Assembly: GCA_036507075.1 (NCBI GenBank)
Contig: DASXQR010000017.1
Span: 32,001 to 96,000, forward strand
From: Acidobacteriota bacterium
GTDB lineage: Bacteria; Acidobacteriota; UBA6911; JACQSX01
Direction of reading: 5' to 3'
DNA: 64,000 nucleotides
The translations under genes and the position numbers were made by a program. The notes under the pieces were generated by a model that did not search any database, was not told the DNA's origin, and was given only the letters and a program-made list of their open reading frames with translations. Every line of letters begins with the position of its first letter. Position 1 is the first letter of the stretch. Shown one piece after another: positions 52-25,029 of the stretch.

Positions 52-1464
52 TCAGCGCCCCCCGACAATATCCTCTAACCTCAAGGGGCCATCGCGGTCC
101 CGGTCCTTTGTCTTGTCGTGATAAGAGTGGCATTCCGTGCATCCGGAGCGGACACGCGTGGAAGAATTGTGGCACCGCAGGCACTCTGCCCGGCCGGGCA
201 AGAGGACATCACGCGTCTTCGTGCTCTCTCTCGCGCCACTGTGGCAGGAAATGCACTGAAGCATCCTGTGCGGTCCATGCGCGAATCGACTGTGGTCGTA
301 CCAGCGCACGCGAATTTCCGGATCCAACACTTGCGGCAGCCTTGCTGAGGCCCGGCTGGTGTCGCGGATAGGTGCGGCAGTCCTGTAATCCCGGCCGGGA
401 AGATTCTCCAGTAGATGGCATTCCCGGCAGCGGACGCTGAACAAATATCTTTCGGCTGAGGCGATCTGCCTTTCCATCCATGCCGGCAGGTTGCGCGGCG
501 CTTCTTCCACCATCATGCTGAGAATGGAAAGCTGGCGGGCGCGATTCCAGTCAACAGGACGTCTCCATTCATTGGGATTCTTACCCGCGTACTTTGAAAA
601 CGCGATTCGGATAAAAGCGTCCACGATTTCTGGTTTGCTGTGCGGCGCCTGCTCGTCGATGCGTTCCTCAAAGGCGAGGGAGTGGCACGTTTGACAGTCG
701 CGCTGGAAATTGACCGGAAGCATGTACGCTCTCCGGGCATCCAGGTGATGGCAGGCAACGCAATCCAGTTTTACCGGGCCATGCGGCCCGCGCAGGTCCG
801 GCCGAAGATGCAGTTGGTGGTTCAGCTTTATCTTGGCAAGATCGGCTGTCTTGTCGCGAAGGAGCCGAAATTCCGGATGATTGGCCTCAAAGCTGGTAAT
901 CGATTTTTCATACCCGAGGACGGGGCGAACGGGCGGCGCGACGGGTGACGAATTCCGCATTTGGAATGCGCCGGCAGTGGTGGATTTGGATTGGCCGGGG
1001 GCATCGCCGGCGACAATCGGCGCAGTCTTAAGCGAACTATGGCACTGCGTGCAGTTCTGGTCGGAGGCCTGTTTTAACTGGGATTCGCCCTTGTGCTCCA
1101 CGTGGCAACTGGCGCACGGCGGCTGTGCGCCCGCTGCGCCTTGGTATATCTGGTTGATGTGGTGGATGGGTCCCGCATGACATTTTTCGCAGGCCTGGTC
1201 ACTGACAGGGCGGTGGAAGCGCTCCTTCCTCGCGCCGGTGTGACAGGAAGCGCAGTCAGATTCTAAAATGGAATGTGCTGTAGAAAGGGGACCTGGGTTG
1301 TACAATTTATCGTCGCGCATCAGAGCGTAGGCCAGCAACCACACCATTGCCGCGACGAGTGCCGCAATCGATAACCATCGCTTCCAGTTGCGAAACGGAT
1401 GGGGCTTCTGGAAATAATTCAGTTCGATTCGCTGGGCAATCTGTTTGGTTGTTCGCTTGCGCAT
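52..1464 (-). CDS. Membrane-anchored decaheme c-type cytochrome (cytochrome c3-like repeats)
   Basis: 470 aa; N-terminal TM helix (WLSIAALVAAMVWLLAYAL); 10 CxxCH motifs (CASCH, CEKCH, CASCH, CTQCH, CVACH, CQTCH, CRECH, CISCH, CLRCH, CTECH). Confidence 0.9.
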   Translation of the reverse strand: MRKRTTKQIAQRIELNYFQKPHPFRNWKRWLSIAALVAAMVWLLAYALMRDDKLYNPGPLSTAHSILESDCASCHTGARKERFHRPVSDQACEKCHAGPIHHINQIYQGAAGAQPPCASCHVEHKGESQLKQASDQNCTQCHSSLKTAPIVAGDAPGQSKSTTAGAFQMRNSSPVAPPVRPVLGYEKSITSFEANHPEFRLLRDKTADLAKIKLNHQLHLRPDLRGPHGPVKLDCVACHHLDARRAYMLPVNFQRDCQTCHSLAFEERIDEQAPHSKPEIVDAFIRIAFSKYAGKNPNEWRRPVDWNRARQLSILSMMVEEAPRNLPAWMERQIASAERYLFSVRCRECHLLENLPGRDYRTAAPIRDTSRASARLPQVLDPEIRVRWYDHSRFAHGPHRMLQCISCHSGARESTKTRDVLLPGRAECLRCHNSSTRVRSGCTECHSYHDKTKDRDRDGPLRLEDIVGGR

Positions 1465-1480
1465 TTACCGAGCCCGAGAC

Positions 1481-2371
1481 TTACGTATATCGCAGCGCTG
1501 CCACCGCATGGACCGCCGCCAGAACCAGCAGCGCGAAAGAGAGGGGTACATGCACAAGGAGCCACCCGTGAAGAAGGTGATGCAGTCGAACTTGCCGCAG
1601 CAATTGACGTCGCTCTTCCACCATGAGCTGCAAATCTTCCAGTTGCTGGTGAAGCTCCGGAGGCAGGATCTTGCGTATCTGATCAAAAACATTCTCCGCG
1701 TTCTGCCTGGTTGAAAGTTTCCCTTCCGCGCGGGCCTGGTCGTGCAGAAACGGCTTTACTTCTTGCAGATAAAAATCGCGCAATGCCGCGTCCGCGGGAG
1801 TCTTTTCAGTCGGGATAGTCACAGTCTTTGGGCGAGCGGACGCGACCTCCATCACAAAAGCCTCGGCTGTGTTCTTTTCCACGATGGCATTAACCAGGTC
1901 ATCCGCTTCCTTCCGCAATTGGTCCAGCACATGATCAATCTGTTCGTAGATGGATTCCATCGGCAGTTGCTCGAGCATTATTCGGGGTATGACCTGCTGT
2001 AATGCGAGGCCTGCAACGCCGCTGATCACAATCACGGTGAACAGAATCATCAGTATTGTTGTAAGCGGACCACCCAGGGAAAAACCCGCATGGAAAAGGA
2101 TCATTGGATAACTGAGCAAGCCCAGCCAGACGTGCCCCTGCATCCAGGTGTAGAGCCGGCCTACCCGCATGGTGGGCTTTTTCTTGCGGGCGTTAAGCAG
2201 CAGCGCAAATAACATCATCGCCGACCCGACGGCGCCATAAATCAAACCCGGCTGGCTCCCGCCCGAAGGGCCCGAAGCGCTCCTGGAATAGGGAATATAC
2301 AGCACGCCTGCAATCGCAAGGATAATCAGGCTGGCCGTGATCCAGGGCTTGCTGTCTCGGTTGATGATCAC
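1481..2371 (-). CDS. Integral membrane protein, probable di-heme b (ferric-reductase-like) subunit
   Basis: About 5 TM segments; two H-x13-H pairs in TM helices (GHVWLGLLSYPMILFH, VHVPLSFALLVLAAVH); start overlaps the stop of the upstream gene. Confidence 0.7.
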   Translation of the reverse strand: MIINRDSKPWITASLIILAIAGVLYIPYSRSASGPSGGSQPGLIYGAVGSAMMLFALLLNARKKKPTMRVGRLYTWMQGHVWLGLLSYPMILFHAGFSLGGPLTTILMILFTVIVISGVAGLALQQVIPRIMLEQLPMESIYEQIDHVLDQLRKEADDLVNAIVEKNTAEAFVMEVASARPKTVTIPTEKTPADAALRDFYLQEVKPFLHDQARAEGKLSTRQNAENVFDQIRKILPPELHQQLEDLQLMVEERRQLLRQVRLHHLLHGWLLVHVPLSFALLVLAAVHAVAALRYT

Positions 2372-4545
2372 TGGCGTTCATGCTTGGCAGACGCAAATTG
2401 CGATCCGATGAGCTGCACGTCGAAAAATTCCTGCGGATCCACGCGGTGGGCGGCGTCATGCGGGCAGGCGTAGACACAACTGGGCTCCTTGTGGTCGGTG
2501 CAAAGATCGCAAGCAGTCGCCTTTTTTCTGATTGCAGTGCGGGTCTCACCGGTCACCGGATCTTTTTCCTTTACTTCGAACGGGTGCATGTTGATGTTGC
2601 CGTAGGGGCACTGCTGCGCGCACAAACCGCAGCCAATGCACCAGTCTTCAATGATAATCTCGAGGGACTCCTTGCGATGAATCGATCCGACCGGGCACCC
2701 CACCATGCAAAGCGGATCGCGGCACTGGCGGCACGAAGTCGCCACCAGATATTTGTCAAATCTCAAGCCATCCCGGATCAGACGCGTCACGCCGTCGTGT
2801 GCCGCCGCGCACGCGCGCACGCAGTCATCACAACGGACGCACTTCTCGAGATCCAGGATCAACAGGCTCTGCGCCTCCATCAGGCCCTGGCCGAGAAAGT
2901 CATTCAGCGACGCCGTCTTCAGGAGTGTGGCTTGCTGGCGATTGGACTCCGTGCGCTGGCGCGCGATCGCTTCCAGTTGACGGCGAATATCAGGGAAGCG
3001 CTCCAACATACTGTTAAAATCCTCTTTGGAAATGCGCAGCACTTCCACGTGGTCCAGCGCCGTACAGGTGGCGGTGCGGACCCCCTCTGCCAGCAGGCCG
3101 ATTTCGCCGAAGTATTGTCCGCGCGCGAGATAGGAAAGCACCAAGTCTCCACCCTCGTAATTCTGCGTGACCTTCACATGTCCGATGCGCAACAGGAAGA
3201 ATGACTCTGAAACATCCCCCTGCCGGCAAATGACCTCGCCCGGCTCAAAGCGGAGCAGCTCCACGCGATCTCTCAGGTAGTCTATGAACTCCAGGCTGAG
3301 GTTGCGAAACATAGGGACGCTCCGCAGGTGGTTATCCAGTGCGCGCTGGCGGTATGCCGCGTCCAACTGTGCCTTGAACTGCCGGTTCTTCTGCAGGATC
3401 TGCAAGACATTGCGCAGCATCTCCAGAACCACGCAGTCTTCAGCCGCGCGCGCGGTGGCAGACCTGGGATAGAAATTCAAGCAGGTCATCTCGCCGAACA
3501 GATCTCCCTCTCTGAGTTGAGCCACGGGATTGTCAAGCGGCAGGTCCACGGTGGCATCAACCGGGATGTAGGACTGGGCTGCCGCGTCCGATCTGGGATG
3601 GGCATCGGGGCGGGCGAGCAGGCTGGTCATCTTCTTGAACCAACTTCCCGGCCGGTCACGCTGTGTTCTTACATGCGACAGGGGAGTCTCCACAAAAATG
3701 TCCACCGTTCCGTGAAGAATATAGAAGGCAGTCGAGCCGAATTCTCCCTGCCTGCATATGATTTCCCCTTTCTTGAGGCTGCGCCTGACAACACCGCCTT
3801 CATTGCGGGCGAGAAACGCGCTCGAGATGCCCGAAAAAACCGGATATTCGAGCAGCTCTTCCGCACCCAGCGACTCGCCTTCTTCCAGTCTGGTCCCGAT
3901 CAGTTTGCTGGCCGTAATGGCCCCTGTGGGACAGGAGACCATGCATTCGCCGCAGTTTACGCAACTGGATTGGCCCATGGGCTTATCGTTGTCAAAGGAG
4001 ATGCTGGTAAAGTATCCCTTGCCCATGCGTCCGATTACGTCATTGTGTTTGACATCGGTACAGGCGCGCACGCAGCGGTCACAAACAATGCAGGCGCTGT
4101 GATCGATGGCAATTGTTGGATTGGAGCGGTCGCCTCCTTTGGAATAAGCACGCGGCGAAAATGAAGGGTGCTCGATCCCCATTTTTTGCGCCAGCACTTC
4201 GAGTTCGCAGTCGCCGTATTCTCTATGACGTTCACAGGGAACGGGGTGATCGGCCAGCAACAGTTCCACCAGTGTTTTTCGCGACTGCTCCACGCGGTCG
4301 CCGCGCGTGTACACCTTCATGCCGTTTTCAGCCTGACGGACACATGAAGCCGCAAATACGCGGGCGCCTTCCACCGCCACGACACACACCCGGCACACCC
4401 CCACGGGAGCGAGGTTTGGCTGGTGACAGAGCGCTGGTATGGAAATGCCCAGAGCCAGGGCGGCTTCCCACAAAGTTGTTCCTTCAGCGACGGTAACCGG
4501 TTTGTCGTCTATTGTCAGGCTGATCGTCCGCGCTTCCGTGCTCAC
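2368..4545 (-). CDS. Fe-S protein: NuoG/HoxU-like N-terminal module + two cNMP-binding domains + DmsB-like 4x[4Fe-4S] ferredoxin
   Basis: 2Fe-2S motif CHQ..GVCRVC..ASC; CIVCDRCVRAC and CVNCGECMVSCP; cNMP cassettes FGEMTCLNFYPRSATA and FGEIGLLAEGVRTATC; CVRCDDCVRAC, CRQCRDPLCMVGCP, CIGCGLCAQQCP, CDLC..PSCVYACP. Confidence 0.85.
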   Translation of the reverse strand: MSTEARTISLTIDDKPVTVAEGTTLWEAALALGISIPALCHQPNLAPVGVCRVCVVAVEGARVFAASCVRQAENGMKVYTRGDRVEQSRKTLVELLLADHPVPCERHREYGDCELEVLAQKMGIEHPSFSPRAYSKGGDRSNPTIAIDHSACIVCDRCVRACTDVKHNDVIGRMGKGYFTSISFDNDKPMGQSSCVNCGECMVSCPTGAITASKLIGTRLEEGESLGAEELLEYPVFSGISSAFLARNEGGVVRRSLKKGEIICRQGEFGSTAFYILHGTVDIFVETPLSHVRTQRDRPGSWFKKMTSLLARPDAHPRSDAAAQSYIPVDATVDLPLDNPVAQLREGDLFGEMTCLNFYPRSATARAAEDCVVLEMLRNVLQILQKNRQFKAQLDAAYRQRALDNHLRSVPMFRNLSLEFIDYLRDRVELLRFEPGEVICRQGDVSESFFLLRIGHVKVTQNYEGGDLVLSYLARGQYFGEIGLLAEGVRTATCTALDHVEVLRISKEDFNSMLERFPDIRRQLEAIARQRTESNRQQATLLKTASLNDFLGQGLMEAQSLLILDLEKCVRCDDCVRACAAAHDGVTRLIRDGLRFDKYLVATSCRQCRDPLCMVGCPVGSIHRKESLEIIIEDWCIGCGLCAQQCPYGNINMHPFEVKEKDPVTGETRTAIRKKATACDLCTDHKEPSCVYACPHDAAHRVDPQEFFDVQLIGSQFASAKHERQ

Positions 4546-6224
4546 TGCAGGCTTCCCTCCGCTTTAAAGCAGGTTCCGGAAGGACACGTGCGTCGCACCA
4601 TGTGCTCTTCGACTTCCTGGGGAAAATGTTTGATCACCGAAGTAATCGGATTGGCGACCACCTGGCCCAGGCCGCAAATGGAAGTCATCAATAAAGTGTC
4701 GGCAAGCCGGTGGATGGTTTCCAAATCCTCTTTCGTTCCGCTTCCGTGGGTAATGCCGTAAATGATATCCACCATTTTCTGAGAACCAACGCGGCAGGGA
4801 ACGCACTTACCGCACGATTCATTGCGGTAAAAACGAACCTCGTTGAGAGCCAGATCGATCATGCATGTGCCTTCGGCAATCGCCACGATTGCGCCCGATC
4901 CAAGCATCGCTCCGGCCTGTGCCAGTGTCTTAAAATCGAGCGGGATATCGGCCATCGATGCAGGCAAGAATCCAGAGGAAGGTCCTGACGGGGCAAAGGC
5001 TTTCATTTTTCTGCCGCCTGAAATACCGCCGGCCAGTTCGAAGATCACGCGAGAAGCCGGCGTGCCCATCGGAATCTCAAACACCCCGGGGTTATTAACA
5101 TGTCCGCTGACCGCCACCCACTTCAATCCGGTGAAATCTGGTGCTCCCTGTGCCTTGAACCATTCGGCGCCCTTGATCAAAATAACGGGCACATAGCAGA
5201 GAGTCTCCACGTTGTTGATCACGGTCGGCTTGTTCCACAAACCGTTGGTTACCGGGAAGGGTGGCTTGTTGCGTGGCTGTCCCCGCCGGCCTTCGATCGC
5301 TTCCAGCAGCGCGCTCTCTTCGCCCTGGATGTATCCTCCCGGACTGACGAAGACTTCCAGATCAAAATTCATTCCTGACCCCAGAAGGTTCTTTCCAATC
5401 AATCCATCGCCCCGGGCACGAGCGATTTCCTGCTGCAGTATCTCTATCTGTTCTTCGTATTCGTGGCGGATATAGATGATCCCTCGCTGGGCGCCGGTCA
5501 CCACGCCTGCTGCGATCATTCCCTCGATCAGCAGATAGGGAAGATTTTTCATGATTTCGCGGTCTTTGAAGGTTCCCACTTCGCTTTCGTCTGCGTTGCA
5601 AATGACGTACTTTTCTCCGGCGGAGGCGTTGCGAACCAATTCCCATTTCAATCCTGCCCCGAAGCCCGCGCCTCCCATACCTTTCAAGTTGGCCGCCTTC
5701 AACTTTTCGATGGTTCCGGTAAGGTCACGTGAAGAAATCAGCGTTTTCACAGCGCCATACCTTTCACGTTCGTCTGCATAAGGGTCGGTCAGAAATCTGC
5801 GGTTCAGGGGGGGGAATTTTTGAGGTTCGGGAAGGTTGCCTCGGATGGCTGCGCCGGCGAGTTCCAGCGCTTCGTCGATTGATTTCCGCGCGTAGATATG
5901 ATCATTGACGGCAAAGGCGGGGGCCCCGTCGCACTGGCCCAGACACGAGACCGGACGCACCACTACTCCTTCGGCATGCTGATCGCGTACCATCTGGTTT
6001 ACCTGCCGGCGCAGTTGGTCGCAGCCGTGGAGGTGGCAAGGCATGTCGGCGCAGATGTGGATCTCAACCGGAGGCGGAGGCTGCAGGCGAAAATGGGGAT
6101 AAAAGCTCGCCACGCCGTACAACTCATAAACGGGAACGCGGATCCGGGCAGAAAGCTGCTGAAGCTCCTTCTCGGGAATGTAGCCAAATCTATGCTGGAT
6201 GGCCCGGAGCTCGTTAATGATCAT
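4542..6224 (-). CDS. NuoE-NuoF fusion (HoxF/FdsB-like FMN NAD(P)H diaphorase subunit)
   Basis: Thioredoxin-like 2Fe-2S (CADMPC..SCLGQC); GMGGAGF, CNADESEVGTFKDR, GEESALLEAIEG, INNVET, ESCGKCVPCRVG, SICGLG; ATG at 6224 preceded by GAAAGGGA. Confidence 0.9.
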   Translation of the reverse strand: MIINELRAIQHRFGYIPEKELQQLSARIRVPVYELYGVASFYPHFRLQPPPPVEIHICADMPCHLHGCDQLRRQVNQMVRDQHAEGVVVRPVSCLGQCDGAPAFAVNDHIYARKSIDEALELAGAAIRGNLPEPQKFPPLNRRFLTDPYADERERYGAVKTLISSRDLTGTIEKLKAANLKGMGGAGFGAGLKWELVRNASAGEKYVICNADESEVGTFKDREIMKNLPYLLIEGMIAAGVVTGAQRGIIYIRHEYEEQIEILQQEIARARGDGLIGKNLLGSGMNFDLEVFVSPGGYIQGEESALLEAIEGRRGQPRNKPPFPVTNGLWNKPTVINNVETLCYVPVILIKGAEWFKAQGAPDFTGLKWVAVSGHVNNPGVFEIPMGTPASRVIFELAGGISGGRKMKAFAPSGPSSGFLPASMADIPLDFKTLAQAGAMLGSGAIVAIAEGTCMIDLALNEVRFYRNESCGKCVPCRVGSQKMVDIIYGITHGSGTKEDLETIHRLADTLLMTSICGLGQVVANPITSVIKHFPQEVEEHMVRRTCPSGTCFKAEGSLQ

Positions 6225-6399
6225 TTGTCCCTTTCGTGACGCTTCTTTAACTCTTGCGATCCGGTAAGTGTGGGAGAAGCAGGTCAAGCCAATAAAGGAA
6301 AACTACGCCGCCACTACCGAGCGAGTTTGACAGAAGTAGCTGAATTTTATCGCAAAGCAAGCACCACGTATGTAATAAAAATAGCGGAGGAAAACCAGC

Positions 6400-7746
6400 T
6401 TGGTTGTTCATCGCACCCTGAACATCGCCGCACGATGGATCATACTGTCTGCGATCGTCGTGTTTCCGCGTTTCCTGCTTTCTGAAAGTACTGAATACCG
6501 TAACACCGAACCTCAGACTGCCGGAGCCGCGGTGGCTTACACGGGAGCCGGGTCGTGTACGTCCAGTAACTGCCACGGCAGCGTGTGGCCCAGGACTGGA
6601 AGTCGCATCAAGCAGAATGAATACAAAATATGGTCAGGCAAGGACCGGCATGCCAAGGCCTACAACGTGCTTCTTGAGCCTCGCTCCAAGCTGATTGCGC
6701 GCAACCTGGGAATTGATCGGGCCGAGACCGCAGGCAAATGTCTCGACTGCCACGCGCTGAACGTTCCCACGGGCGAGCAGGCGAAGAGCTTTGATCTTTC
6801 CGACGGTGTAAGCTGCGAGTCCTGCCACGGGCCTGCGGCCGGCTGGCTGGGGCCGCACACAACACGAGGGCAGACCCATCAGCGGAACCTTGCCCTCGGA
6901 ATGTACGAGACAAAAGATCTGCCCAAGAGGGTAGAGCGTTGTCTTTCCTGCCACATAGGCACCGAGAAAAAGACTGTCGACCATGAAATGATTGCTGCCG
7001 GACATCCTGACCTCATTTTCGAATTGGACACATTCAGCGCCCTGATGCCGCCTCACTGGGAGGAGCCAAAGAGCGCCTGGCAGGGAATGCGCCGATGGGC
7101 TGTGGGCCAGGCAGTGGCGCTGGGAGCGTCAATGGAGCAGTTGGAACGCAGGGTTCGCGGAAGTCCCTGGAACGGCTGGCCCGACTTTGCTGACTTCGAA
7201 TGCTTTTCCTGCCACCATAATCTGGTGCTTCCGAGCGCGCGCCAGGCCCGCGGCTACCCGGGACGCGCTGGTATTCCTCTGTGGAATCCATCGCGTTACA
7301 TGGTATTTCGGCAAGTCGTGGCGGCCATCTCTCCCGCAGAGCGGCGCATTCTGGATCAACTGATCGAAGAACTGAAGCAGCGCCTTCAAAACGCCGGATC
7401 AGGCCGAACGTTTGTGGCGGAAACGGCATCGCGGATTGCGCAGTTGATGGATAACCTGGTTCCGCAACTGGGAAAGGCTTCATACAGCGAATCGCTCGCC
7501 CGCACCGTTATGCGGGCCATCGCTGCAGATGGTGACGCCATTTCCAACGCTGGAATGCGCTCCGCCGAACAGGCCACGATGGCGCTGGAAGCTCTGTACA
7601 ATTCATACGAACAAACCACGGAAAAAAACAACAAACCGCTCAACGCTCAAATCAGCCGCCTGTATGAAACGCTCCAGTCCACTTCAAGATATGATCCCGA
7701 ACAATTCGCAGCGCAATTGAAGCAAGTGCGCAACCTCATCCCTTAG
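6400..7746 (+). CDS. Exported multiheme c-type cytochrome (c554/c552-like N-terminal domain + helical C-terminus)
   Basis: N-terminal hydrophobic segment; CTSSNCH (CX4CH), CLDCH, CESCH, CLSCH, CFSCH. Confidence 0.85.
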   Translation: MVVHRTLNIAARWIILSAIVVFPRFLLSESTEYRNTEPQTAGAAVAYTGAGSCTSSNCHGSVWPRTGSRIKQNEYKIWSGKDRHAKAYNVLLEPRSKLIARNLGIDRAETAGKCLDCHALNVPTGEQAKSFDLSDGVSCESCHGPAAGWLGPHTTRGQTHQRNLALGMYETKDLPKRVERCLSCHIGTEKKTVDHEMIAAGHPDLIFELDTFSALMPPHWEEPKSAWQGMRRWAVGQAVALGASMEQLERRVRGSPWNGWPDFADFECFSCHHNLVLPSARQARGYPGRAGIPLWNPSRYMVFRQVVAAISPAERRILDQLIEELKQRLQNAGSGRTFVAETASRIAQLMDNLVPQLGKASYSESLARTVMRAIAADGDAISNAGMRSAEQATMALEALYNSYEQTTEKNNKPLNAQISRLYETLQSTSRYDPEQFAAQLKQVRNLIP

Positions 7747-7758
7747 TGGGTTCTAGAA

Positions 7759-8053
7759 GCGTCATTCGTCACGCGTCATTGGTCATGCGTCATTGGTTAC
7801 GCGTCATTGGTCACTGGTTGTCGACATCGGCCGTCCGTTGTTCGTGATGGTTGCTTACCAATTGAAAATCTTCCAAAACCCTCGGCGATATTGGACGTCA
7901 TTGAAACCGCCGCACTGCGCATTTGAGCAACCAGATTATATTTTTCTTCTGCAGGAAAAGTTGATGTGACTTCATATGACGAATGACATATGACGAATGA
8001 CGCTGTTGTCTGACCTCCGCTCTAGCTCCTGCCTCCCGCCTCCTGCCTCCTGC
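7759..8053. repeat. Inverted heptamer tandem repeats (GTCATTG/GTCATTC ... GAATGAC) plus CTCCTGC tandem
   Basis: GTCATT(C/G)GTCA units at 7759-7817, complementary ATGACGAATGAC units at 7976-8003, CTCCTGC-like x4 at 8026-8053. Confidence 0.75.
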
Positions 8054-8054
8054 T

Positions 8055-11000
8055 TCACGGAGAAGCATCGGTCACCGTGTAAAGTTTCCCGTCGCGCAGA
8101 TACATTCGCTGCATCTCCTTCAAATTCAGGGGACGTGCTCCACGGCGGCCAAAGACCGCGATCTGGTTGCCGCTTTCGTCTGCGGCGCGATCGCGGTCCA
8201 AGCCCTTTGATAATGCCACGGCGGGGCCTCGTGTGCGGTATGTGGCGATCAGTTCGGGAGCGGGCGCCGGGCTGAAGCCGTAGTTGCCTTCTGTTCTGGC
8301 CGGGGAGGTCAATTGCAGTACACGCAATCCGTTTTGGCCGTCAGCGATGTAAGCGTAAAGGCTGGCACTGGTCATGGCCACTTTCACCGCATGAGCATCG
8401 TTGATTTTTCCGCCGGCGTTGTAAGTCAAAAAGAGCCTGGGAAATTCCGGCCTTTCGATGTCGAGAATCACCAACCCGTTTTTGCCGGCAGCGACATAGG
8501 CATACGTCCGTGCCAGGTAAATATCGCGGGCATCTTCAAGGCGCACCGTCCCGCTTTCCACGGGATGCGCTTTTTCAGGAATAGTCACATCGACCACCTT
8601 CAGCCCCTGGTCGTCTATTATGAAAGCGTAGCGAAATTGAATCGCGACCGCTTTGGCCTTCGAGAGAAATGGGCCTTCGATGATGGATGCCACTCTTGGT
8701 TTCAGGGGATCTGTCAGGTTCAGTATCGCCAAGCCGCGATCGCAGGTGATGTAGACATAGTTTCCCGCAATCGCCAGATTGCTCGCGCCGTTGAGCAGGC
8801 CATTGGGATTGTAGGTGAGTGAGCGTTCCAGGAAGTTGTTGGTTGGGTCTCCGTCCAGCAGAGTCGCGGCGCCAACAAGGATCAATCCTTCGTACCTGTC
8901 TGTAAAAAAGATGTACCCGTAAATCGGCGCGGGAAGTTGTTCGTCGTTTTCCTGTCTGTGACTTCGCGCCGGATCCACTGCCAGGGTAGAGGGCGCGGCC
9001 ACGGCGGTCGCGAATTTGCTTTTCACGTAAAAGCGCTGACCCGCCGGCGAGACCGGCGCTGACACCATTCTTTCTGAAAACCCCTTGTGGTCGATCTGCG
9101 CCACGTCGAAAACTTCAAGCCCCCCCGGGCCGTTCGCCGTGTAGAGATATTCCCCGCGCAGCTGCAGGCCGGCGGTTTCGCCGTGGTGATGATAGGCTTC
9201 TTTTAGCTGCTCGCCACGCTGCCTGTGTTTCCGGTAGTTCTCAGGATAGGCAATGCGATGCAGCTCGCTGCCGATGACTGCCTGCGGCTCGTCCCGCTCG
9301 GTGACGACGACAGCCTCGAACCCGTGTTTCTCTTCTCCCACATAGACGAACCTTCCCATGAAATTCACAAAATTGGTTCCCTGCATCAGCAACTGTGCCA
9401 TCACGGCATTGTTGTCGTTGTACTTTGAAACGTGGCAATCCGTGCAGGTCTTTGTCTCCGCGGCCCTCACTGTGTGCGGCACGTGGGTGCTGAACGCCTG
9501 GCCGCTGAAACCTTCGGCTGAGACAGTTTGCTGTTGTGAATAAACCCACTCGCGATTCCCCGTCTGTGAGGCAACAAGAACCGCGCTGCGTGATGCCGCG
9601 GGCGCCACACGGTGGCCGGTTACAGTGCCGTCGATTCCCAGCATATAGACATCGTCGCGAACGACTTGAAAGTTGTAGGAAGTCCAGTTTCGGGTGGTCT
9701 GTCCTTCGTTGTGCAGCATCGGTCGTTTCTTGTTTGCAGTCATCGACAGGTGGCACCCAAAACATCCGGTCATCCATGAGGAATGGCACGCGTAGCAGGT
9801 CATGCTGGAGTTGGGATGCGCCAGCAGTTTTTCATCTGCAGGTACTCCCCAGGTGGTTCCGTCCTTCTGAAGAGTTTTGGCCAGCCGGGACTTCTCACTG
9901 TAATGAGACAAACCGGGCGTGACCGAGTCCAATGTCTGCACGATTTCCCACTCCTGCCCCTCCTTGACCATGGAACGCTGGATTATCCTGTCTCCGATGA
10001 CCTCAAAGCGTTTCCGGCCCCAGGGAGTACGCAGCGTGCTCAGGTTTGTTCCCTGAGGCGGCGCCGCAAAGCCGCTGGTCTTGAGCGTGGTACGCTGCGT
10101 CACGGTCCCGTGGCAGTCAGTGCAGTCGATTTCAATGGCGCCACGCGGCTCGTTATAGAGCTTGCCGTTGCCGTGTGCGTCCTGCTCAAAGTGGCAGTCG
10201 ACACAGTGCATTCCTTTCTCCAGATGGATATCCTTCAAATGCACTGCCTTTCTGAATTTGTCAGGATCGCTATGAGGAACAATCTTGCCGTCTTTATCAA
10301 GCAGGTTGCCCTTTCGATCCTGTTTGTATACGGCGCGAAAGACCCAGCCATGCCCGTGGAAATCGGCAAATTGCGTGCGCTTCAGTTGCGGATTGAGATT
10401 GGTAAGATCCGCCAGGAATTGGGGATCGGACCAAAGGCCCCGGATTGCCGAGCCTTCAGGATTGCGCTGCTGAATCTCGGCCACCTGGTTGGGCGAAAGT
10501 TTCTTTTCCCTGGACGGATACATCAGTTCGCCATCGGTCTCGTTGTCCCACCAGGTGTATCCGAAGTAGGTGCTCACCATGTTCGTGCCCGGATGCATAT
10601 GACACACCATGCACTGGCTGGAGGGGATGGAGCGGGTCAGGCGATGGCGTATCGGATGCCCGGATTGATTTTTGGGAATAGTGGGATCGGGATTTGCCGT
10701 GCGTCCTGAATTTCCATAGACCGCATAAGCGCCCGAATGCAACGGCGAACGATCGTTTGCGTAGATGACGTGGCATGCAGTGCAACCGCTGTGTCGGTAA
10801 TCGCCGGGCTGATCGTTCGTACCCGGAAAATGCAGTATCGGATCGAGCAGTCTGGTCTTCTGCAATCCGAGGAATACCGGGTCGGTGCGATTGGCGGTTC
10901 CGAATCCCCGCACACTGAGGTTTTTGTCCGGCTTGCCGGGCTCTTCCTCCGGATTTGGAATCCCAATATCCGGCACCCGCAAGCCGCCGCGTTCAAATAC

Positions 11001-11813
11001 GCGGAGCACGTTTCCCGGCTGGGAGATTCCCCACTGCGATAGCGGATCCAGGTAAGGGAGAATCCCCTTCGCGCGCGTTTCCTCCGGTGTCGGGGGCGGA
11101 ACAGTTTGAATCCGCTGCGGCGTGCCGTCGCGTGCGTAACTCTCACCGAAGTGAGCATCCTTGAGCGGATAAGCGCCGTTGTTGTACAAAGCCGCTCCCC
11201 AAAGCATCGCGCCATGGGTCATCATGCTCTTTCGCACGTTGTAGGCTTCACGCGTATGACATCCTGCCGATCCACAGGTCTGATCCAGGACTCGAAGGTC
11301 GCCGGGGTTGTTAAAGCGGACAAATTCCTCGCTTTCCTGGTTCCACTGCGCGCCGATGCGAACGGGATTGGCGCTTGTCTTGAAAAAATCCTTCGATCGT
11401 GGCTGTGGATGCGCCTTCTCCTTCGCGCTGGTATCAGCGTTGCCGCCATGGCAATCGGTACATCCAAGGCGTACGGTTTCCTGTGCATGCATCGGTTCCA
11501 CGTTGGTGTGACAACCGGTGGAAGTGCATCCTGCACTCTTTCTGTCGGCTTCCTGCTGCGTTTGAAAGAGCAGGCTTTCTCGAAGGTCTGAAGAGGCGCG
11601 GATCTGAGAGAAAGTATTATAAGACCCGGTTTCGGGGCCCTTCTTGATCACGGACTGCCGGCCCGCCAGGGCCTCGTGCCGCGTTTGTGGCGAAGAGTCG
11701 CGAGCAACCTCTACAGGATCCAAAGCCGGCCGGAGCCCGGCGTTGCCCAGCGCGATAATTGCCGCACCGCCGATCAACGCAAGAATTCTCAGCGCCATCA
11801 ATCCTTGTTGCAT
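8055..11813 (-). CDS. Large exported multiheme cytochrome c with C-terminal LVIVD-repeat beta-propeller
   Basis: 1252 aa; signal-like N-terminus; 8 CxxCH + 2 CX4CH (CTSTGCH, CGSAGCH); repeats GLEVFDV, GLAILNL, GLKVVDV, GLVILDI, GLRVLQL. Confidence 0.85.
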
Positions 11814-14083
11814 CAGTACGTTACCGCCAGTCCGACGAAAGTCGAGAAAAGTGTTTTCGACGTGAAAATGTCCCGGAAGCCGCGGCCCGGAATAAATGCT
11901 CCTACGCCGCCATTGATGATGAAGTTATTATTCAGCCATGGGCGCCACTTGACTCCGAGGCTCGCATCCATGCCGACAAAGCGGCGGATTCCGGACTGAA
12001 AAAGCAGGGCCTCCAAAACTTGAGTATGTGCAAACCACATCACGTTGACGTTGGCTGAGCCTCGTAATTTCGGAGTGACTTCTGCATCCATTCCCAGACC
12101 ACCCAGGTACAGTCCCGGGTTGACATAATTAGCCTGGCCTTCATCCTTGCTGCTTCGCAGACTTGGATTCAAGCTGAACCTTTGAGTGAGCCCCAAGCCC
12201 GTTCCCGTGAGCCGAAATCCTTGTCGCGTCCAAAAGCTGTTGCCCGCTCCGGCAAAGTTCACGTTATCGAAAATACTGTCGAAACCGCGCGAGCGATTGT
12301 CATTCGGGTTATCGTCGCCCGACACGTAGAAGAAAGACGCCTTATACCGCTTCCAGTCCCTGTCCAGTGACAACTCCAGAGCCGCCAGTTGCGCATTGAT
12401 GTCGGAATTGAGCGGCGCGAAGACCGCGTTTTGACCTGCAATCTGGCTGGGGATTTCCTGGCCCAGCACCTGGTAAAAGGCATGATCAATATTCCAGGAT
12501 CCGAAGTGGCCGTCTCCGGTCCATCCGAGGTAAACCGCGCTGATACTTTTGGGAATGACGTTCCCCACCTGGGCGGGACGAACCAGAAAACCATTCTCGT
12601 CAAAATGTACGCTGGGCCGGTCATGATTGAAATGAGCGCTGAATTGCGCCGTATAGCCGAGCGCGCCCAGGAAATCCTGGATGTAATAATTTGCGATTAA
12701 CACTTCCTGGCGTCTTTGCCTGAAAGTATTCAACCCGCTGTTAGTGTCCTTTTCCAGCATGTTGAAATAGGCCAGATTGTACTGGTGCTTGTTGGCTTTA
12801 AAGTTGCCAAACAGGCGTACGCCCGGCTCATTGTCCGAGAAGACAAAACCGCGAAAATCACTGGTGAACCCCTGCGTGCCCACCCGCAGCGACGCGAAGT
12901 CATAGAAGGGACTGGTCTCGGCCAGACGCGCTTCCACAAATGCCTCCTGCAGGGCGATGTGGGAATCGCTTCGCGTGTTGAAACGGCGCACATCGATATT
13001 CACCACCGCGTTTTCGCGGGCCTCAAGATAATTGACATTGAAAACGGGTGTGATGCGAAACCGAATGTCCACCGGCTTGAAAGTAGAGTAACCGCGAAAC
13101 AAGTCTGCCGACAGGATGAAATTCTGGTTGAACAGAAATGTTTCTCCGCGCGCGAAGAACTCCGGATTGTTCGGCTGCAAAGAACTGGGAGGACTGGGAA
13201 CGGGAAAACGCCGGTATTCCTCCAGGGAATCGCTGATGGCGCTGAAATTCAAAAACCAGCGATTGCCGAAAATCGGGTAATCGCCCTTCAGGACATTCTG
13301 GTTGAACGGGTCCCACCAGTGGCCGCGCACATAAGGATAGTCTCCATTGGCGGAGCGATACGGGGTGTAGCGATCCCAGCCGGGAAAGCCGATGCGCCAC
13401 CGATCAGCCACCGGAATGAAGTCTTCAGTCGCCTCCACGCGCGGGCGGTTGGAAACACGGCCGGCGTATCCAAGTGGCTGGTACTGGGAGGTGCGTGACG
13501 GATGCGCCACGTTTTCGACTGTTTCTGCTTCTTCAACCTGAGGCACGGGCCTGCGAAATGCCGGCGCAGTCTGGCTGGTCTCGGGTAGCTCCGGCTCTGC
13601 TTCCTTTGCGCCGGGTTCCTCCTGACCGGGGCGCCGGCGCAATCTTCGATCCGGGGGTACGCTCTCTTCGACCTTCATTTCTAAATTGAGCGTATATCGG
13701 TCGCGCAGAATAATTTCCCTGACTGACAGAGTCGGAAATCCGCTGCGCTCAGCAGTCAGGTCGTAAGTCCCCGGCTGAAGATTTTCAATCAGGAAGTTTC
13801 CTTCATTTCCGGTAACGGCTCCTTGCTGTTCTCCTGTTTGTCTGTTTATGACAGTGATGATGACCTGCGACAGGGGCGCGCCGGCAGTGTCGCGCACAGT
13901 CCCCTGCAGACGCGCTTGTTCGGACAGCCCCGGGCGTTCAGGGCGCCGAATCTGTGGCCGTGCCGCTTCCTTTCCCAACAAGGAAGAAAGGAAGCAGGAA
14001 AAAACAACCACGAGCGGAAGAAGTGTGTACCGCAAGCAGCCAACTGACCCGATCAAGCGCCCTTCTCTGGAGATCAAATTCAA
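11813..14083 (-). CDS. Outer-membrane beta-barrel protein with N-terminal carboxypeptidase-regulatory-like domain
   Basis: Signal peptide; [29 protein letters not shown] domain; amphipathic aromatic-rich strands; C-terminal beta-signal VGLAVTY; TGATG coupling to the downstream cytochrome. Confidence 0.7.
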
Positions 14084-14195
14084 CGGAAGTAGAGACGCGA
14101 TATTATCGCGTCTCTGTGTTCGAATTGCAAAACTCTCCCCGTTGTGTAAAAATCTCCATCCTTTCCACTCCCTTCAATGCGTGTTTGAGCTCACG

Positions 14196-15890
14196 ATGAC
14201 GCGACGCGACTTGGCATTTGTTTTGTTTCTCTTTGCCCTTTGCTGTTTGACCAGCCGGGTCTCGGCTCAGACCGGGACCATCCGGTTTATTCCGCCCCGA
14301 GTGCCGGCTGCGGTAGAAGAGACGGTAGCAGAGAAGGTGTCGGACTCAAGCATTCTCACTGCCAGTGAAGTGGACTTGACAGTAAAGGGCGCCCTGCAGG
14401 CAGCCGGCGTTCCGGGATACTCCGTTGTTGTAGTAGACAGGGCTGGAAGAATTCTCGCGGTCTGGCAGCAGCCCGGAGCCACTCTGGAAACCGCCGAGCG
14501 GGCCCTTTCCCTGGCTCGAACGGGCGCTTTTTTCAGCAACGATCAAGCGCCGCTCTCTTCTCGAACGGTGCGCTTCATCAGCGGCATTCATTTACCGCCG
14601 GGAATTCGGCTGCAGCCGAACGCAGACCTTTACGGGATTGAAAATACCAATCGGGGCTGCGATTTCAATGCGCAATTCAACGAAGGCAAGTTTGTCCCGC
14701 GCGCCAAGTCGCTTCTGGCATTGCTGCGCGATGAGAATCCGCAACTTGGCCCCTCGCTTCCCTGCAATGCTTTCGACCAAAGTGGATGCGGAGTTGGAAT
14801 CAGCACGGGCAAGTACTCAGGACGCTTTGAAGAGGGCCGCTTGATTGACATCGAGCTTGACGAGAAGTTGGATCAAAAGCCGCTGCAGGTGGACGGAGGC
14901 GGCATACCGTTATTTAAAGACTGCCGCGTAGCCGGCGGTATAGGTATTTTTGGTATTCCGCCGGCGCAGGCAGAATTTGCAGCGCTGGTGGGAAGTATTT
15001 CAGGTGGGCCTTCATTTGGGCCGCTTTCCTGCCTCCCGCCGCCCGGTGCTGTTTTCCTCGCCGGATTACGGCTTCCTTTCATTGGGCCATTGGCAGCGCA
15101 ATTGCTCCAGTCTGGAAAGACTACTTTGCCGGGAACCAGCCCGGGAACGTCCGTGGGCGCGTATCTCGTGCTGCCGCGTGATGGCGTCGTCGCTGCGGAT
15201 GGATGGCTGGTTGGGGGGCCTGATAATCCAAAAAACAGCGCTGAACTGTCAGCTTCCGAAGTTCAGACCATTGTCCAGCAGGCGATTGATCAGGCAAATA
15301 AGACGCGCGCAGCGATTCGGCTGCCGCCTGGCAGCCGCACCCGTATGGTCATTGCCGTTTCTGATGTGCGCGGCAATCTGCTGGGCCTGTATCGGATGAC
15401 CGATGCCACCGTGTTCAGCATCGATGTGGCTGTGGCCAAATCACGTAACGTGGTTTACTTCAGTAGTGAGCGGCTCGACCCGCGTGATTTACCCGGCGTC
15501 ACGCCGGGCACAGCCGTGACCAATCGAACCATTAGCTTTGGATCCCAGCCGCTGTTTCCCCCGGGCATTGATTCTACCCTCCATGAACGGGGTCCCTTCT
15601 TTGACCTTTTTTTGCGCGACCTGGCCAGTCCCTGCTCTCAGGGATTCGACACGGAAAACAAGGAGAACGTTAACGGGATTGTCTTCTTTCCTGGCAGCGC
15701 GCCCCTTTTCAGAAATGGAAAGCTGATCGGAGGACTGGGGATCAGCGGCGACGGCGTGGATCAGGACGACGTGGTCACCGCTGCTGGAACCATCGGCTTT
15801 GAGGCGCCGCTTTCCATTCGCGCCGATCAATTTCTTTTGCGCAGCGTGCGCTTGCCCTATATAAAGTTCAATCGGAACCCTGAGAACTGA
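14196..15890 (+). CDS. Exported tandem GlcG/HbpS-family heme-binding protein
   Basis: Signal peptide MTRRDLAFVLFLFALCCL; two GlcG-like domains (VVVVDRAGRIL..GGIPLF..AGGIGIFG; IAVSDVRGNLL..PGSAPLF..GGLGISGDGVDQD); start moved from 13848. Confidence 0.75.
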   Translation: MTRRDLAFVLFLFALCCLTSRVSAQTGTIRFIPPRVPAAVEETVAEKVSDSSILTASEVDLTVKGALQAAGVPGYSVVVVDRAGRILAVWQQPGATLETAERALSLARTGAFFSNDQAPLSSRTVRFISGIHLPPGIRLQPNADLYGIENTNRGCDFNAQFNEGKFVPRAKSLLALLRDENPQLGPSLPCNAFDQSGCGVGISTGKYSGRFEEGRLIDIELDEKLDQKPLQVDGGGIPLFKDCRVAGGIGIFGIPPAQAEFAALVGSISGGPSFGPLSCLPPPGAVFLAGLRLPFIGPLAAQLLQSGKTTLPGTSPGTSVGAYLVLPRDGVVAADGWLVGGPDNPKNSAELSASEVQTIVQQAIDQANKTRAAIRLPPGSRTRMVIAVSDVRGNLLGLYRMTDATVFSIDVAVAKSRNVVYFSSERLDPRDLPGVTPGTAVTNRTISFGSQPLFPPGIDSTLHERGPFFDLFLRDLASPCSQGFDTENKENVNGIVFFPGSAPLFRNGKLIGGLGISGDGVDQDDVVTAAGTIGFEAPLSIRADQFLLRSVRLPYIKFNRNPEN

Positions 15891-15908
15891 GCAAATTCTC
15901 CGAATGCC

Positions 15909-17333
15909 ATGGCCAAAAAGAAATACGATCTGATCGTCATTGGTTCAGGACCTGCCGGAGAAAAAGGCGCTGCACAGGCGGCTTATTTCGGAAAAAAAGT
16001 AGCCCTCATTGAAAAGGAGCCTGTGCTCGGGGGCGCCGCTGCCAACACGGGGACTCTTCCTTCTAAAACATTGCGAGAGACTGCTCTCTACCTGTCCGGT
16101 TTTCAACAACGCGAATTGTACGGCGTCAATATCGGAATGAAGGAAAAACTAACGGTTCCAGATTTTTTGTTCCGGGAAAGACTGGTAAAGGAAAATGAGA
16201 GAGCCAGGATCATGGAAAATTTGAAGCGCCACAACGTGGAGCTGTATATGGGGATCGCCTCCTTTGTCGACCCGCACACGGTCTTGATCCATCCAGCCAG
16301 ATCCGCGGATGTGCAGATTCAGGGGGCGGTCATTCTTATCGCCACTGGTTCATATCCTCATCGGCCGCCCATTTTTCCATTTCATGATCCGCGCATTTAT
16401 GACTCCGATTCCATTCTTACCATGCACAATATGCCTCCCACGATGGTGGTGGCCGGCGGAGGCGTGATCGGCTGCGAATATGCGTGTATGTTTGCGGCTT
16501 TCGGTATCGATGTTTCGCTTGTGGAAGTACGAGAGACGTTAATGGGTTTTTTGGATCCGGAAATCTCCGACATGCTGCGCGTGAGAATGGAGGCGATGGG
16601 AATTCACATGAAGATGCCTGACTCCATAGAGACGGTTGAGCCGGGCGCTGAGACCATCGAAATCCGGCTACAGTCGGGCTCTGTGCTCAATGCGCATACG
16701 ATTTTGGTCGCCTCCGGGCGCAGTGGCAACACTGAGACCCTGGCTTTGCAGAAAATCGGAATTGCGACCGGCAAACGTGGACAAATAGAGGTGAATGAGA
16801 ATTATCAGACCAATGTGCCAAATGTGTATGCCGTCGGGGATGTCATCGGCTTTCCGGCCCTGGCCTCTACCTCGATGGAACAGGCCCGTGTTGCAGTGGT
16901 TCACGCATTCGATTTGAAGTACAAAACACAACTGGCCAGCGTGCTGCCTTACGGAGTCTTCACCATTCCGGAATGTTCCATGGCTGGCGAGACGGAAGAC
17001 ACCCTTAAGGAGAAAAAGATACCCTATGTCGCGGGTAAGGCGCTCTATTCCGGCAACGCCCGCGGACAAATCATTGGTGACAACACGGGCTTTCTAAAAC
17101 TCCTTTTCCGCGAGGAAGACATGAAGCTCTTGGGTGTTCACATAATCGGCGAGCAGGCAACCGAAATTATTCATGTGGGTCTTAGCGCCCTGCTGCTCGG
17201 CGCCGGAGCCGACCTTTTCATTCAGACCTGCTACAACTACCCCACCCTCACTGAGATGTACAAATACGCCACCTATGACGCGCTCGGGCGCAAGGCGGCG
17301 AGACGCAAAAGCAAGGTCGCAGCTCAAGCGTAA
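15909..17333 (+). CDS. sthA: Soluble pyridine nucleotide transhydrogenase
   Basis: GSGPAGE FAD motif, NTGTLPSKTLRE, GGGVIGCEYA, GDVIGFPALASTSMEQ, C-terminal NYPTL. Confidence 0.85.
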   Translation: MAKKKYDLIVIGSGPAGEKGAAQAAYFGKKVALIEKEPVLGGAAANTGTLPSKTLRETALYLSGFQQRELYGVNIGMKEKLTVPDFLFRERLVKENERARIMENLKRHNVELYMGIASFVDPHTVLIHPARSADVQIQGAVILIATGSYPHRPPIFPFHDPRIYDSDSILTMHNMPPTMVVAGGGVIGCEYACMFAAFGIDVSLVEVRETLMGFLDPEISDMLRVRMEAMGIHMKMPDSIETVEPGAETIEIRLQSGSVLNAHTILVASGRSGNTETLALQKIGIATGKRGQIEVNENYQTNVPNVYAVGDVIGFPALASTSMEQARVAVVHAFDLKYKTQLASVLPYGVFTIPECSMAGETEDTLKEKKIPYVAGKALYSGNARGQIIGDNTGFLKLLFREEDMKLLGVHIIGEQATEIIHVGLSALLLGAGADLFIQTCYNYPTLTEMYKYATYDALGRKAARRKSKVAAQA

Positions 17334-22952: not shown

Positions 22953-25028
<2,076 letters not shown>

Positions 25029-25029
25029 G

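Follow-up and report, generated by a model that had tools for sequence, protein, structure and literature searches.

A ptd-type gene cluster in an acidobacterial genome and its predicted route for electrons from NAD(P)H into the cell envelope

A nine-gene redox cluster and its recurrence

The stretch of DNA analysed here, referred to below as the window, comprises 64,000 nucleotides of an Acidobacteriota genome assembly (GCA_036507075.1, contig DASXQR010000017.1, positions 32,001 to 96,000). Its nearest labelled relatives are Acidobacteriota (Terriglobia), and the source organism is probably a soil acidobacterium. Positions 52-17333 hold nine genes for redox and cell-envelope proteins (Table 1), which an initial annotation, made from the sequence alone, had proposed to form a conduit for electrons from NAD(P)H to the outer membrane. 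All nine open reading frames (ORFs) are present where that annotation had placed them, and Pfam and NCBIfam confirm every domain that it had named. They are arranged in four transcription units on two strands. In unit 1, the ORFs for the NuoE-NuoF fusion (NuoEF), the iron-sulfur (Fe-S) protein with cyclic nucleotide-binding (cNMP) stretches and the membrane protein are joined by overlaps of four bases (4542-4545 and 2368-2371), and in unit 3 the stop codon of the barrel gene overlaps the start of the LVIVD cytochrome gene by one base (11813). In agreement with the annotation, the first 22 kb of the window and the 18 kb upstream of it encode no hydrogenase, molybdenum/tungsten enzyme or complex I membrane subunit.

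Table 1. Genes of the cluster, with their positions in the window and the number of related loci (of 58) in which each was found
Unit	Gene product	Position	Strand	Length	Features	Loci
1	Membrane-anchored periplasmic decahaem cytochrome c	52-1464	-	470 aa	10 CXXCH; one N-terminal hydrophobic segment	49
1	Membrane protein	1481-2371	-	296 aa	Five membrane helices; four invariant His (80, 94, 274, 288)	51
1	Fe-S/cNMP protein	2368-4545	-	725 aa	Fer2_4; NuoG 4Fe-4S region; 2x[4Fe-4S]; cNMP_binding in three stretches; four C-terminal Cys motifs	
1	NuoE-NuoF fusion, flavin mononucleotide (FMN)/NADH diaphorase module	4542-6287	-	581 aa	Pfam 2Fe-2S_thioredx, Complex1_51K, SLBB, NADH_4Fe-4S	33
2	Secreted c554-like cytochrome, counterpart of PtdD	6400-7746	+	448 aa	4 CXXCH and 1 CX4CH; helical C-terminal half	33
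3	Secreted 10-haem LVIVD cytochrome	8055-11813	-	1252 aa	8 CXXCH and 2 CX4CH; C-terminal LVIVD beta-propeller	18
3	Outer-membrane beta-barrel	11813-14083	-	756 aa	N-terminal CarboxypepD_reg sandwich; long linker; aromatic last residue	15
4	Secreted tandem HbpS/GlcG-like protein	14196-15890	+		Pfam HbpS-like 1.1e-22	17
4	SthA-type flavoprotein, soluble pyridine nucleotide transhydrogenase family	15909-17333	+		NF003585 557.9 bits (cutoff 465)	7

From their recurrence in other genomes, we conclude that the nine genes are likely parts of one conserved gene set, linked beyond chance. With the Fe-S/cNMP protein as the query against one genome per species, 59 loci (designated by L numbers) were found, of which L062 was dropped as matching only the NuoG-like N-terminus. 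The remaining 58 belong to Acidobacteriota (22), Verrucomicrobiota (16), Planctomycetota (14) and metagenome-assembled genomes labelled Deltaproteobacteria (three), Pseudomonadota, Cloacimonadota and Acidobacteriaceae (one each); many of the misses behind the counts in Table 1 are contig ends. A core of Fe-S/cNMP protein, membrane protein and decahaem cytochrome recurs in 49-51 of these loci, in at least four phyla. The outer pair of barrel and LVIVD genes lies upstream of the core in some loci and downstream and inverted in others, yet stays linked. The same picture was given by 80 metagenome loci found with the membrane protein: among the 16 of at least 14 kb, all carry the core and NuoEF, 12 the barrel gene, 12 the c554-like gene, seven the LVIVD gene, seven the HbpS-like gene and five SthA. 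The membrane-protein alignment used in this metagenome scan retrieved close relatives only and did not reach the marine forms of the ptd cluster, which is discussed below.

The association also holds at the level of whole genomes. Among 300 other Acidobacteriota genomes, a membrane-protein match (E<=1e-10) was present in 31 and a full-length LVIVD cytochrome in 30, with both in 23, where about three would be expected if the two were independent and with the reservation that kin are not. All five of the core-bearing genomes tested from other lineages hold a full-length LVIVD cytochrome (52-59% identity), unlinked to the core in two of them. The view of the initial annotation that the parts belong together is thus upheld: the genes co-occur across genomes, with synteny across phyla, co-directional single operons, fusions of the Fe-S/cNMP protein to the membrane protein, and the LVIVD cytochrome in these five genomes.

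The architecture of the loci varies. One relative (L074) has the layout of the window, with proteins 51-74% identical. In four Acidobacteriota loci (L066, L067, L070 and L079), the genes for the Fe-S/cNMP protein, the membrane protein, the decahaem cytochrome, the HbpS-like protein, the barrel, the LVIVD cytochrome and the c554-like cytochrome follow one another in a single co-directional operon, and L065 has the same run from the membrane protein through the LVIVD gene; in these one-operon forms the HbpS-like gene stands between the decahaem and barrel genes. The short forms of Verrucomicrobiota have the three cNMP stretches and the four-cluster part of the Fe-S/cNMP protein, with no flavoprotein nearby, and two of these loci (L036 and L056) carry the barrel/LVIVD pair. 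One short form comes from a record labelled Prosthecobacter debontii (L049), and Gemmatales and Tepidisphaerales have long forms. A separate case is L078 (G221:C8:4001-24000), where two fused genes for Fe-S/cNMP protein and cytochrome b flank a barrel with four CXXCH motifs, an LVIVD cytochrome and three genes with 4-9 haems, accompanied by a Fer4 and Pyr_redox protein; as judged from its gene content, this is a duplicated, more elaborate form of the system.

A predicted haem b protein, its Fe-S partner and their flavoprotein heads

The membrane protein reaches the threshold of no Pfam or NCBIfam family, and its profile found no solved relative in the PDB. Its AlphaFold2 (AF2) model, with a predicted local distance difference test (pLDDT) score of 80.8, has five membrane helices, one more than first annotated, of which helices 4 and 5 are separated by a long helical insert. 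His80, His94, His274 and His288 are invariant in 10/10 sequences spanning all subfamilies, and they form pairs 14 positions apart on helices 3 and 5. Two His pairs about 13 residues apart on two helices are the pattern of transmembrane di-haem b proteins such as NOX and MsrQ. We predict that the protein is a transmembrane di-haem b wire of an unnamed family. The annotation had called it a bis-His di-haem b protein; this is deduced from the four conserved His rather than observed. Below threshold, Pfam matches among 25 members of the family are to DUF4405 (12), Ni_hydr_CYTB (two) and Ferric_reduct (one), and related clusters in the Atlas are labelled 'ferric reductase like'. The family is large, with 4377 cluster representatives at E<=0.001 and 753 at 1e-30, and it is entirely unnamed, every name seen among its members being 'hypothetical protein'.

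In four loci (L073, L075, L077 and L078), the Fe-S/cNMP protein and the membrane protein are fused into single proteins of 815-913 aa, which keep the five hydrophobic helices and both His pairs. These fusions support contact between the two proteins in the window. Together with a basic loop after helix 2, they also place the N-terminus and the insert of the membrane protein in the cytoplasm, with the His80/274 pair then near the inner face and the His94/288 pair near the outer face of the membrane.

The Fe-S/cNMP protein is predicted to be a cytoplasmic Fe-S relay, composed of a part resembling HoxU and the N-terminus of NuoG, three cNMP-binding stretches and a C-terminal four-cluster ferredoxin. 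The family cNMP_binding (PF00027) matches at 136.9 bits over the three stretches, in addition to Fer4 families. Conservation is high: of 47 relatives, 46-47 retain the phosphate-binding cassettes FGE..RSA and FGE..RTA with their Arg; at each of the 16 C-terminal Cys positions, all relatives that have a residue there (44-46 of 47) show Cys; and among the 28-32 relatives in which the HoxU/NuoG-like part is present, 28-30 retain the Cys of the [2Fe-2S] cluster and of both N-terminal [4Fe-4S] clusters. One relative of the 'Delta' form (L038:9953-11863) has a PilZ domain, which binds cyclic di-GMP, inserted after the second cNMP stretch (Pfam 4.2e-13). This insertion lies at the same place as the nucleotide-binding region, and we count it towards nucleotide sensing. 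A regulator of the CRP/FNR type was considered and rejected, as Pfam finds no DNA-binding domain in the protein and relatives fuse it to the membrane cytochrome.

Four further Cys inside the cNMP-binding region (Cys264, Cys355, Cys371 and Cys494) are kept in 42-47 of 47 relatives and could form another metal site or a redox-sensing site. Forkhead-associated (FHA) domains occur within some of the systems, in a small gene between the decahaem and HbpS-like genes (L070:13503-14042) and fused to a protein with FNR-like and Fer2 domains (L161:12698-14326), and in L011 a large gene for a Ser/Thr kinase with TPR repeats adjoins the cluster. The FHA occurrences hint at control by Ser/Thr phosphorylation.

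At the cytoplasmic end, all four NuoE/NuoF Pfam domains of complex I are present in the NuoEF fusion of the window, which scores 458.7 bits for TIGR01959, under the cutoff of 558.65; since alignments with relatives begin at residue 12-23, it may in fact start at the ATG at 6224. Of NuoG, only residues 1-200 are matched, and the region searched for complex I genes holds neither a full NuoG with its molybdopterin-like domain nor Nuo membrane genes. The contig carries another nuoE/F/G set about 120 kb from this one, with the NuoEF paralogue at C17:157072-159769. The identification of the module as part of complex I, or as the diaphorase of a hydrogenase or formate dehydrogenase, was rejected, no catalytic or membrane partner being present in the region searched.

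Four kinds of NAD(P)H-type flavoprotein module occur on the same core. NuoEF, in its 33 loci, is always accompanied by the HoxU-like N-terminus of the Fe-S/cNMP protein, itself found in 34 of the 58. In L066 and L070, where Pfam was run, the Fe-S/cNMP protein carries a fused Pyr_redox domain in place of this N-terminus. L046 has a short Fe-S/cNMP gene whose start is overlapped by an SthA-type gene, at the usual place of NuoEF, and ptd-type loci encode FNR-like proteins with FAD_binding_6, NAD_binding_1 and Fer2 domains. Four unrelated, interchangeable heads attached to one core are best explained by NAD(P)(H) as the cytoplasmic partner, in line with the end point proposed in the initial annotation. 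Its assignment of SthA to the balancing of NADH and NADPH is revised here. SthA adjoins the core in seven of the 58 genome loci and in 5 of the 16 long metagenome loci and, with the overlap in L046, seems closer to an alternative or additional NAD(P)H entry module, one of several such, than to a balancer.

The periplasmic side and its relation to ptd and other known systems

The decahaem cytochrome matches the Pfam families Cytochrom_c3_2, Cytochrome_C7 and Paired_CXXCH_1, and all ten of its haem motifs are invariant in 22 sequences; Pfam detected no NapC/NirT domain in it, and a sequence search against the PDB gave nothing. The c554-like cytochrome matches Cytochrome_C554 (2.2e-11) and, in the PDB, cytochrome c554 (1bvb, 1.4e-5), and its haem motifs are kept in relatives. 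The two halves of the HbpS-like protein are related to each other (E 6e-6), and its nearest solved relatives are EfgA (6bws, 1.1e-10), PduO-C and an extracellular haem-binding protein. The LVIVD cytochrome belongs to large clusters of LVIVD-plus-multihaem proteins in several phyla; it matches ExtM in part (5.5e-22), and PDB searches found no solved relative. In the literature, LVIVD repeats are described as repeats of the cell surface, and in one preprint an LVIVD protein figures as an attachment factor and is not connected with cytochromes. Relatives of the barrel end in F or Y. The barrel profile matched the PDB only with its N-terminal sandwich and found no solved barrel, and there is a weak match to Alginate_exp. 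In two Verrucomicrobiota genomes with no membrane-protein match, LVIVD cytochrome genes (G404:C5:1077197-1081171 and G476:C12:7909-11910) contain in-frame stops (TGA/TAA); they may be decaying remnants or reflect sequencing errors.

A literature search on combinations of NuoF, cNMP and multihaem proteins found a single description of a comparable cluster. Elbon, Stewart and Glass (bioRxiv 10.1101/2023.11.21.568154) named it ptdABCDEFG and, in the sections of the preprint that deal with it, call its function 'completely unknown', with a role in the nitrogen cycle under consideration. In their account, PtdA is a pentahaem protein bearing a beta-sandwich at its C-terminus, PtdB a porin, PtdC an FAD/NAD(P) oxidoreductase, PtdD a periplasmic tetrahaem cytochrome, PtdE a cNMP-binding 4Fe-4S protein, PtdF a ferric-reductase-like membrane protein and PtdG a decahaem cytochrome; the hosts given are marine Alpha- and Gammaproteobacteria, Nitrospirales and Planctomycetes. 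The annotation knew of no characterised system with the composition seen in the window. This stands as far as characterisation is concerned, whereas the composition itself was already in print (bioRxiv 10.1101/2023.11.21.568154).

We surveyed 300 other Planctomycetota genomes with the membrane-protein profile, of which 63 matched, and examined ten loci. Four of these (L164-L167) have exactly the published seven-gene ptd layout, a match that rests on layout and not on the authors' sequences; the proteins at their PtdC position carry FAD_binding_6, NAD_binding_1 and Fer2. Against these four loci, the Fe-S/cNMP protein of the window is 26-30% identical to the PtdE-position ORFs (E 1e-51 to 1e-58), its membrane protein matches the 275-aa PtdF-position ORFs in tblastn (E 1e-11 to 1e-23), and its c554-like cytochrome matches the 4-haem ORFs at the PtdD position (E 1e-8 to 5e-13). 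The match of the decahaem cytochrome to the 10-haem PtdG-position ORFs is weak, with E 1e-6 to 1e-9 in three of the four loci and none in L164. The four His of the membrane protein are common to the window and the ptd-layout forms. In both the window and the cluster as described in the preprint, the order is a c554-like tetrahaem cytochrome (by CXXCH count), a cNMP and 4Fe-4S protein, a ferric-reductase-like membrane protein and a decahaem cytochrome, and close by are a barrel, another multihaem protein and a flavoprotein linked to NAD(P).

The differences concern both ends. Where ptd has the FNR-like and Fer2 protein PtdC, the window has NuoEF with the HoxU-like extension and SthA; where ptd has the pentahaem PtdA, it has the 1252-aa LVIVD protein with ten haem motifs; and its HbpS-like protein, like NuoEF, SthA, the LVIVD protein and the barrel, is without counterpart in the ptd-layout loci. 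Neither the LVIVD protein nor the barrel gave a tblastn match at 1e-3 on L161-L168 or L170, and no similarity of the barrel to the PtdB-like ORF was detected. The window type occurs in soil and peat lineages, whereas the ptd hosts listed in the preprint are marine (bioRxiv 10.1101/2023.11.21.568154). As judged by sequence, the window cluster is a variant form of the ptd type in which the input head and the outer module are both new; at least two unrelated outer modules are found on the periplasmic side of the core. That the marine cluster is linked to forms from soil and peat whose outer modules differ points to a superfamily of modular make-up rather than a single operon, and widens the observation made in the preprint (bioRxiv 10.1101/2023.11.21.568154). 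The gene set is real, conserved and uncharacterised, but it has a precedent in that preprint.

Likenesses to better known systems are partial. The predicted order of NAD(P)H, flavin and two bis-His haems b, and the spacing of about 13 residues within the His pairs of two helices, are shared with the NOX, FRE and MsrQ proteins, in which electrons pass from NAD(P)H through flavin and two bis-His haems b across the membrane. In the window, the flavin module is separate and would be joined through 8-9 Fe-S clusters, the Pfam model Ferric_reduct does not reach its threshold, and the acceptor would be the decahaem cytochrome instead of O2, Fe(III) or MsrP. In the Tmc and Hmc complexes of Desulfovibrio and the Cbc-type complexes of Geobacter, a periplasmic multihaem cytochrome c, a membrane cytochrome b and a cytoplasmic Fe-S protein span the cytoplasmic membrane. 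The window shares this arrangement, but the families differ: the only match is one of 29 bits to TmcA (cutoff 114), an HdrD-like protein with CCG motifs is missing, and an NAD(P)H flavoprotein and cNMP domains are built in.

With MtrCAB and the porin-cytochrome systems of Geobacter, as outlined by He et al. in 2017 (PMC5615132), the window has in common a barrel gene coupled to a multihaem cytochrome gene and further periplasmic multihaem proteins. None of its proteins matches the MtrB_PioB, MtrA/DmsE or MtrC families above threshold: PF11854 gives nothing at E<=0.01, and TIGR03508 (MtrA/DmsE) reaches 20.3 bits, against a cutoff of 192.2, on the c554-like protein and nothing on the two 10-haem proteins. 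The window barrel is modelled with 18 strands, and its input would be a cytoplasmic NAD(P)H module acting through haem b instead of a quinol dehydrogenase. On bioinformatic grounds, He et al. also proposed novel porin-multihaem clusters in Verrucomicrobia from humic-rich habitats, each with a barrel and an adjacent cytochrome with eight CXXCH motifs (PMC5615132). The LVIVD protein likewise has eight CXXCH motifs, a likeness by description only, and the description of those clusters names no inner-membrane or NAD(P)H module (PMC5615132).

Proposed route, rival explanations and flanking genes

In our assessment, it is evenly balanced whether the nine genes, as one conserved ptd-type variant, serve to move electrons taken from NAD(P)H in the cytoplasm into the periplasm and, probably, further to the outer membrane. 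From the observed gene content, conservation, fusions and conserved ligand residues we infer each electron-transfer step, the direction of flow, the absence of a quinone and the gating as follows. NADH would be oxidised at the FMN of NuoEF, with SthA as a second entry or a link to NADPH. Electrons would then pass through the HoxU-like clusters of the 725-aa protein to its C-terminal four-cluster ferredoxin, which likely docks on the cytoplasmic face of the five-helix membrane protein. Two haems b, at His80/His274 and His94/His288, would carry them across the membrane to the anchored decahaem cytochrome, and the c554-like cytochrome, possibly with the HbpS-like protein, would bridge the periplasm to the LVIVD cytochrome made together with the barrel. 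The final acceptor could be humics, Fe(III) or a different oxidant. Outward flow would be favoured because NADH is a strong reductant and the movement would be aided by the membrane potential; because such flow would also spend that potential, the system would be an outlet that regenerates NAD+ under oxygen shortage rather than a coupling site. This cost of NAD+ regeneration would explain a regulatory domain, and the cNMP domains, which sit between the Fe-S parts for input and for output, would likely adjust the rate to cyclic AMP or cyclic GMP.

In its fullest form, which we put forward tentatively as a possibility, the system would be a quinone-independent, second-messenger-gated NAD(P)H:extracellular-acceptor oxidoreductase across both membranes, a bacterial 'outward NOX' made of an exchangeable flavoprotein head, an Fe-S relay switched by cNMP, a di-haem b protein of a new family and multihaem cytochromes with the LVIVD/barrel pair at their end. 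Mostly aerobic Acidobacteriota, Planctomycetota and Verrucomicrobiota of soil and peat would use it to unload reducing equivalents on humics or Fe(III) once oxygen is exhausted. To our knowledge, the known routes of extracellular electron transfer in Gram-negative bacteria start at the quinone pool. A route that starts directly at NAD(P)H, crosses the membrane by a haem b wire of its own and is controlled by cyclic nucleotides would depart from this design, and it would occur in lineages that are dominant in soils, peat and lakes without being counted as electroactive. The interchangeable heads, the Fe-S/cytochrome b fusions and the four invariant His offer clear handles for cheap experiments.

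Several results weigh against this reading. An LVIVD gene is nearby in only 18 of the 58 loci, and all 16 Verrucomicrobiota loci, with some others, have the short Fe-S/cNMP form and no NAD(P)H module within 10 kb. Among the 300 Acidobacteriota genomes, the LVIVD cytochrome occurs alone in seven and the membrane protein alone in eight at 1e-10, although two of the seven carry a fused form missed at this threshold; in a sparse sample of 250 Verrucomicrobiota genomes, the membrane protein was found in two, the LVIVD cytochrome in three and both in one. The di-haem b prediction has no Pfam model at threshold behind it; Foldseek of the AF2 model against the PDB returned nothing at E<=0.001 (best E 0.23; STEAP2 at rank 32, E 2.2), and the wide fold search (VIA) returned generic helical bundles only, with Z<=10.5, below the level trusted for such bundles. 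The NuoG/HoxU-type His/Cys site of the Fe-S/cNMP protein, H100-x3-C104-x8-C113 (window 4234-4248), departs from the usual H-x3-C-x2-C-x5-C, whose middle Cys is lacking in almost every long-form relative, and the His-ligated [4Fe-4S] cluster may be absent or differently ligated. SthA is the sole copy in the genome, where paralogues reach only about 30% identity, and may for that reason be a housekeeping gene that merely sits here. The AF2 model of the barrel is poor (mean pLDDT 56.3), with an N-terminal sandwich, a disordered linker and 18 long strands over residues 276-755. MtrB has 26 strands, so that a cytochrome inside the modelled barrel is doubtful and the barrel may be too small. Short contigs from a soil RNA run, 90-99.5% alike on five of the nine genes, are a weak hint of transcription; they stem from a single run with 5% of the words, they may reflect DNA carry-over, and the parts that they leave uncovered carry no information.

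A rival explanation keeps the same inner wiring and makes the outer module an enzyme system: the LVIVD protein would be a periplasmic or surface reductase or oxidase of a soluble substrate (N-oxides, sulfur, selenium or tellurium species, or peroxide), the barrel would be the channel for substrate or product, and NAD(P)H would pay for reduction or detoxification. We hold this to be rather unlikely, if still a serious contender. The 18 modelled strands and the weak Alginate_exp match fit it, as do the partial resemblance of the LVIVD protein to ExtM, which belongs to a selenite/tellurite reduction operon, its CX4CH motifs and a propeller that could hold a site; the ptd type has a c552/NrfA-like pentahaem protein as its outer module instead, and the preprint's remarks on the nitrogen cycle point the same way (bioRxiv 10.1101/2023.11.21.568154). 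However, no catalytic family scores above threshold on the LVIVD protein, it has no solved relative, its repeats have been described as cell-surface repeats, and the overlap of barrel and cytochrome genes is a hallmark of porin-cytochrome pairs. A quinone-linked system, with cytochrome b and decahaem cytochrome as a quinol:cytochrome c module like CbcL or CbcBA and with NuoEF and the Fe-S/cNMP protein as a non-pumping NADH:quinone reductase on the same haem b protein, seems improbable; in it, the quinone pool would stand between the Fe-S clusters and haem c. Di-haem b proteins that have a four-cluster Fe-S protein as partner (NarHI, FdnHI), as well as b/c fusions (CbcL), are quinone enzymes, and a few relatives match Ni_hydr_CYTB; yet the locus encodes no quinone-site family or NrfD-type subunit, the decahaem cytochrome has no NapC/NirT domain, and the tight order of Fe-S/cNMP protein, cytochrome b and decahaem cytochrome, with the fusions of the first two, fits a direct relay.

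Inward flow, from an extracellular or periplasmic donor through barrel, cytochromes and haem b to the reduction of NAD(P)+, strikes us as quite improbable. NuoEF modules are reversible in principle, and pairs of multihaem cytochrome and barrel serve iron oxidation too; but electrons would move against the membrane potential, NAD+ (about -320 mV) would need a donor of very low potential, and no periplasmic hydrogenase or formate dehydrogenase is encoded in the locus. That these are unrelated redox genes brought together by chance is hardly credible: the four transcription units on two strands and the single-copy SthA would allow it, and the cross-phylum synteny, single-operon forms, fusions and genome-level co-occurrence contradict it.

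The genes on either side of the cluster are unrelated to it. Upstream lie genes for DUF4214, DUF2207, SLT and PAP2 proteins and for sulfatases, and downstream those for a secreted protein, an arabinofuranosidase and a glutamate dehydrogenase. A scan of the locus for promoters and terminators was uninformative, with 11 promoter-like sites against 7.7 expected. The secreted protein (369 aa; 17413-18522, minus strand), which adjoins SthA, is without a Pfam or NCBIfam family and is not kept beside the system elsewhere. Further along the window, at 22887-28973, two radical S-adenosylmethionine enzyme genes, of which the products have a zinc ribbon of the HMPTM type in one case and a B12-binding domain in the other, are followed by an ATP-grasp/L-amino-acid-ligase gene, and together they are possibly a small locus for a peptide or natural product.

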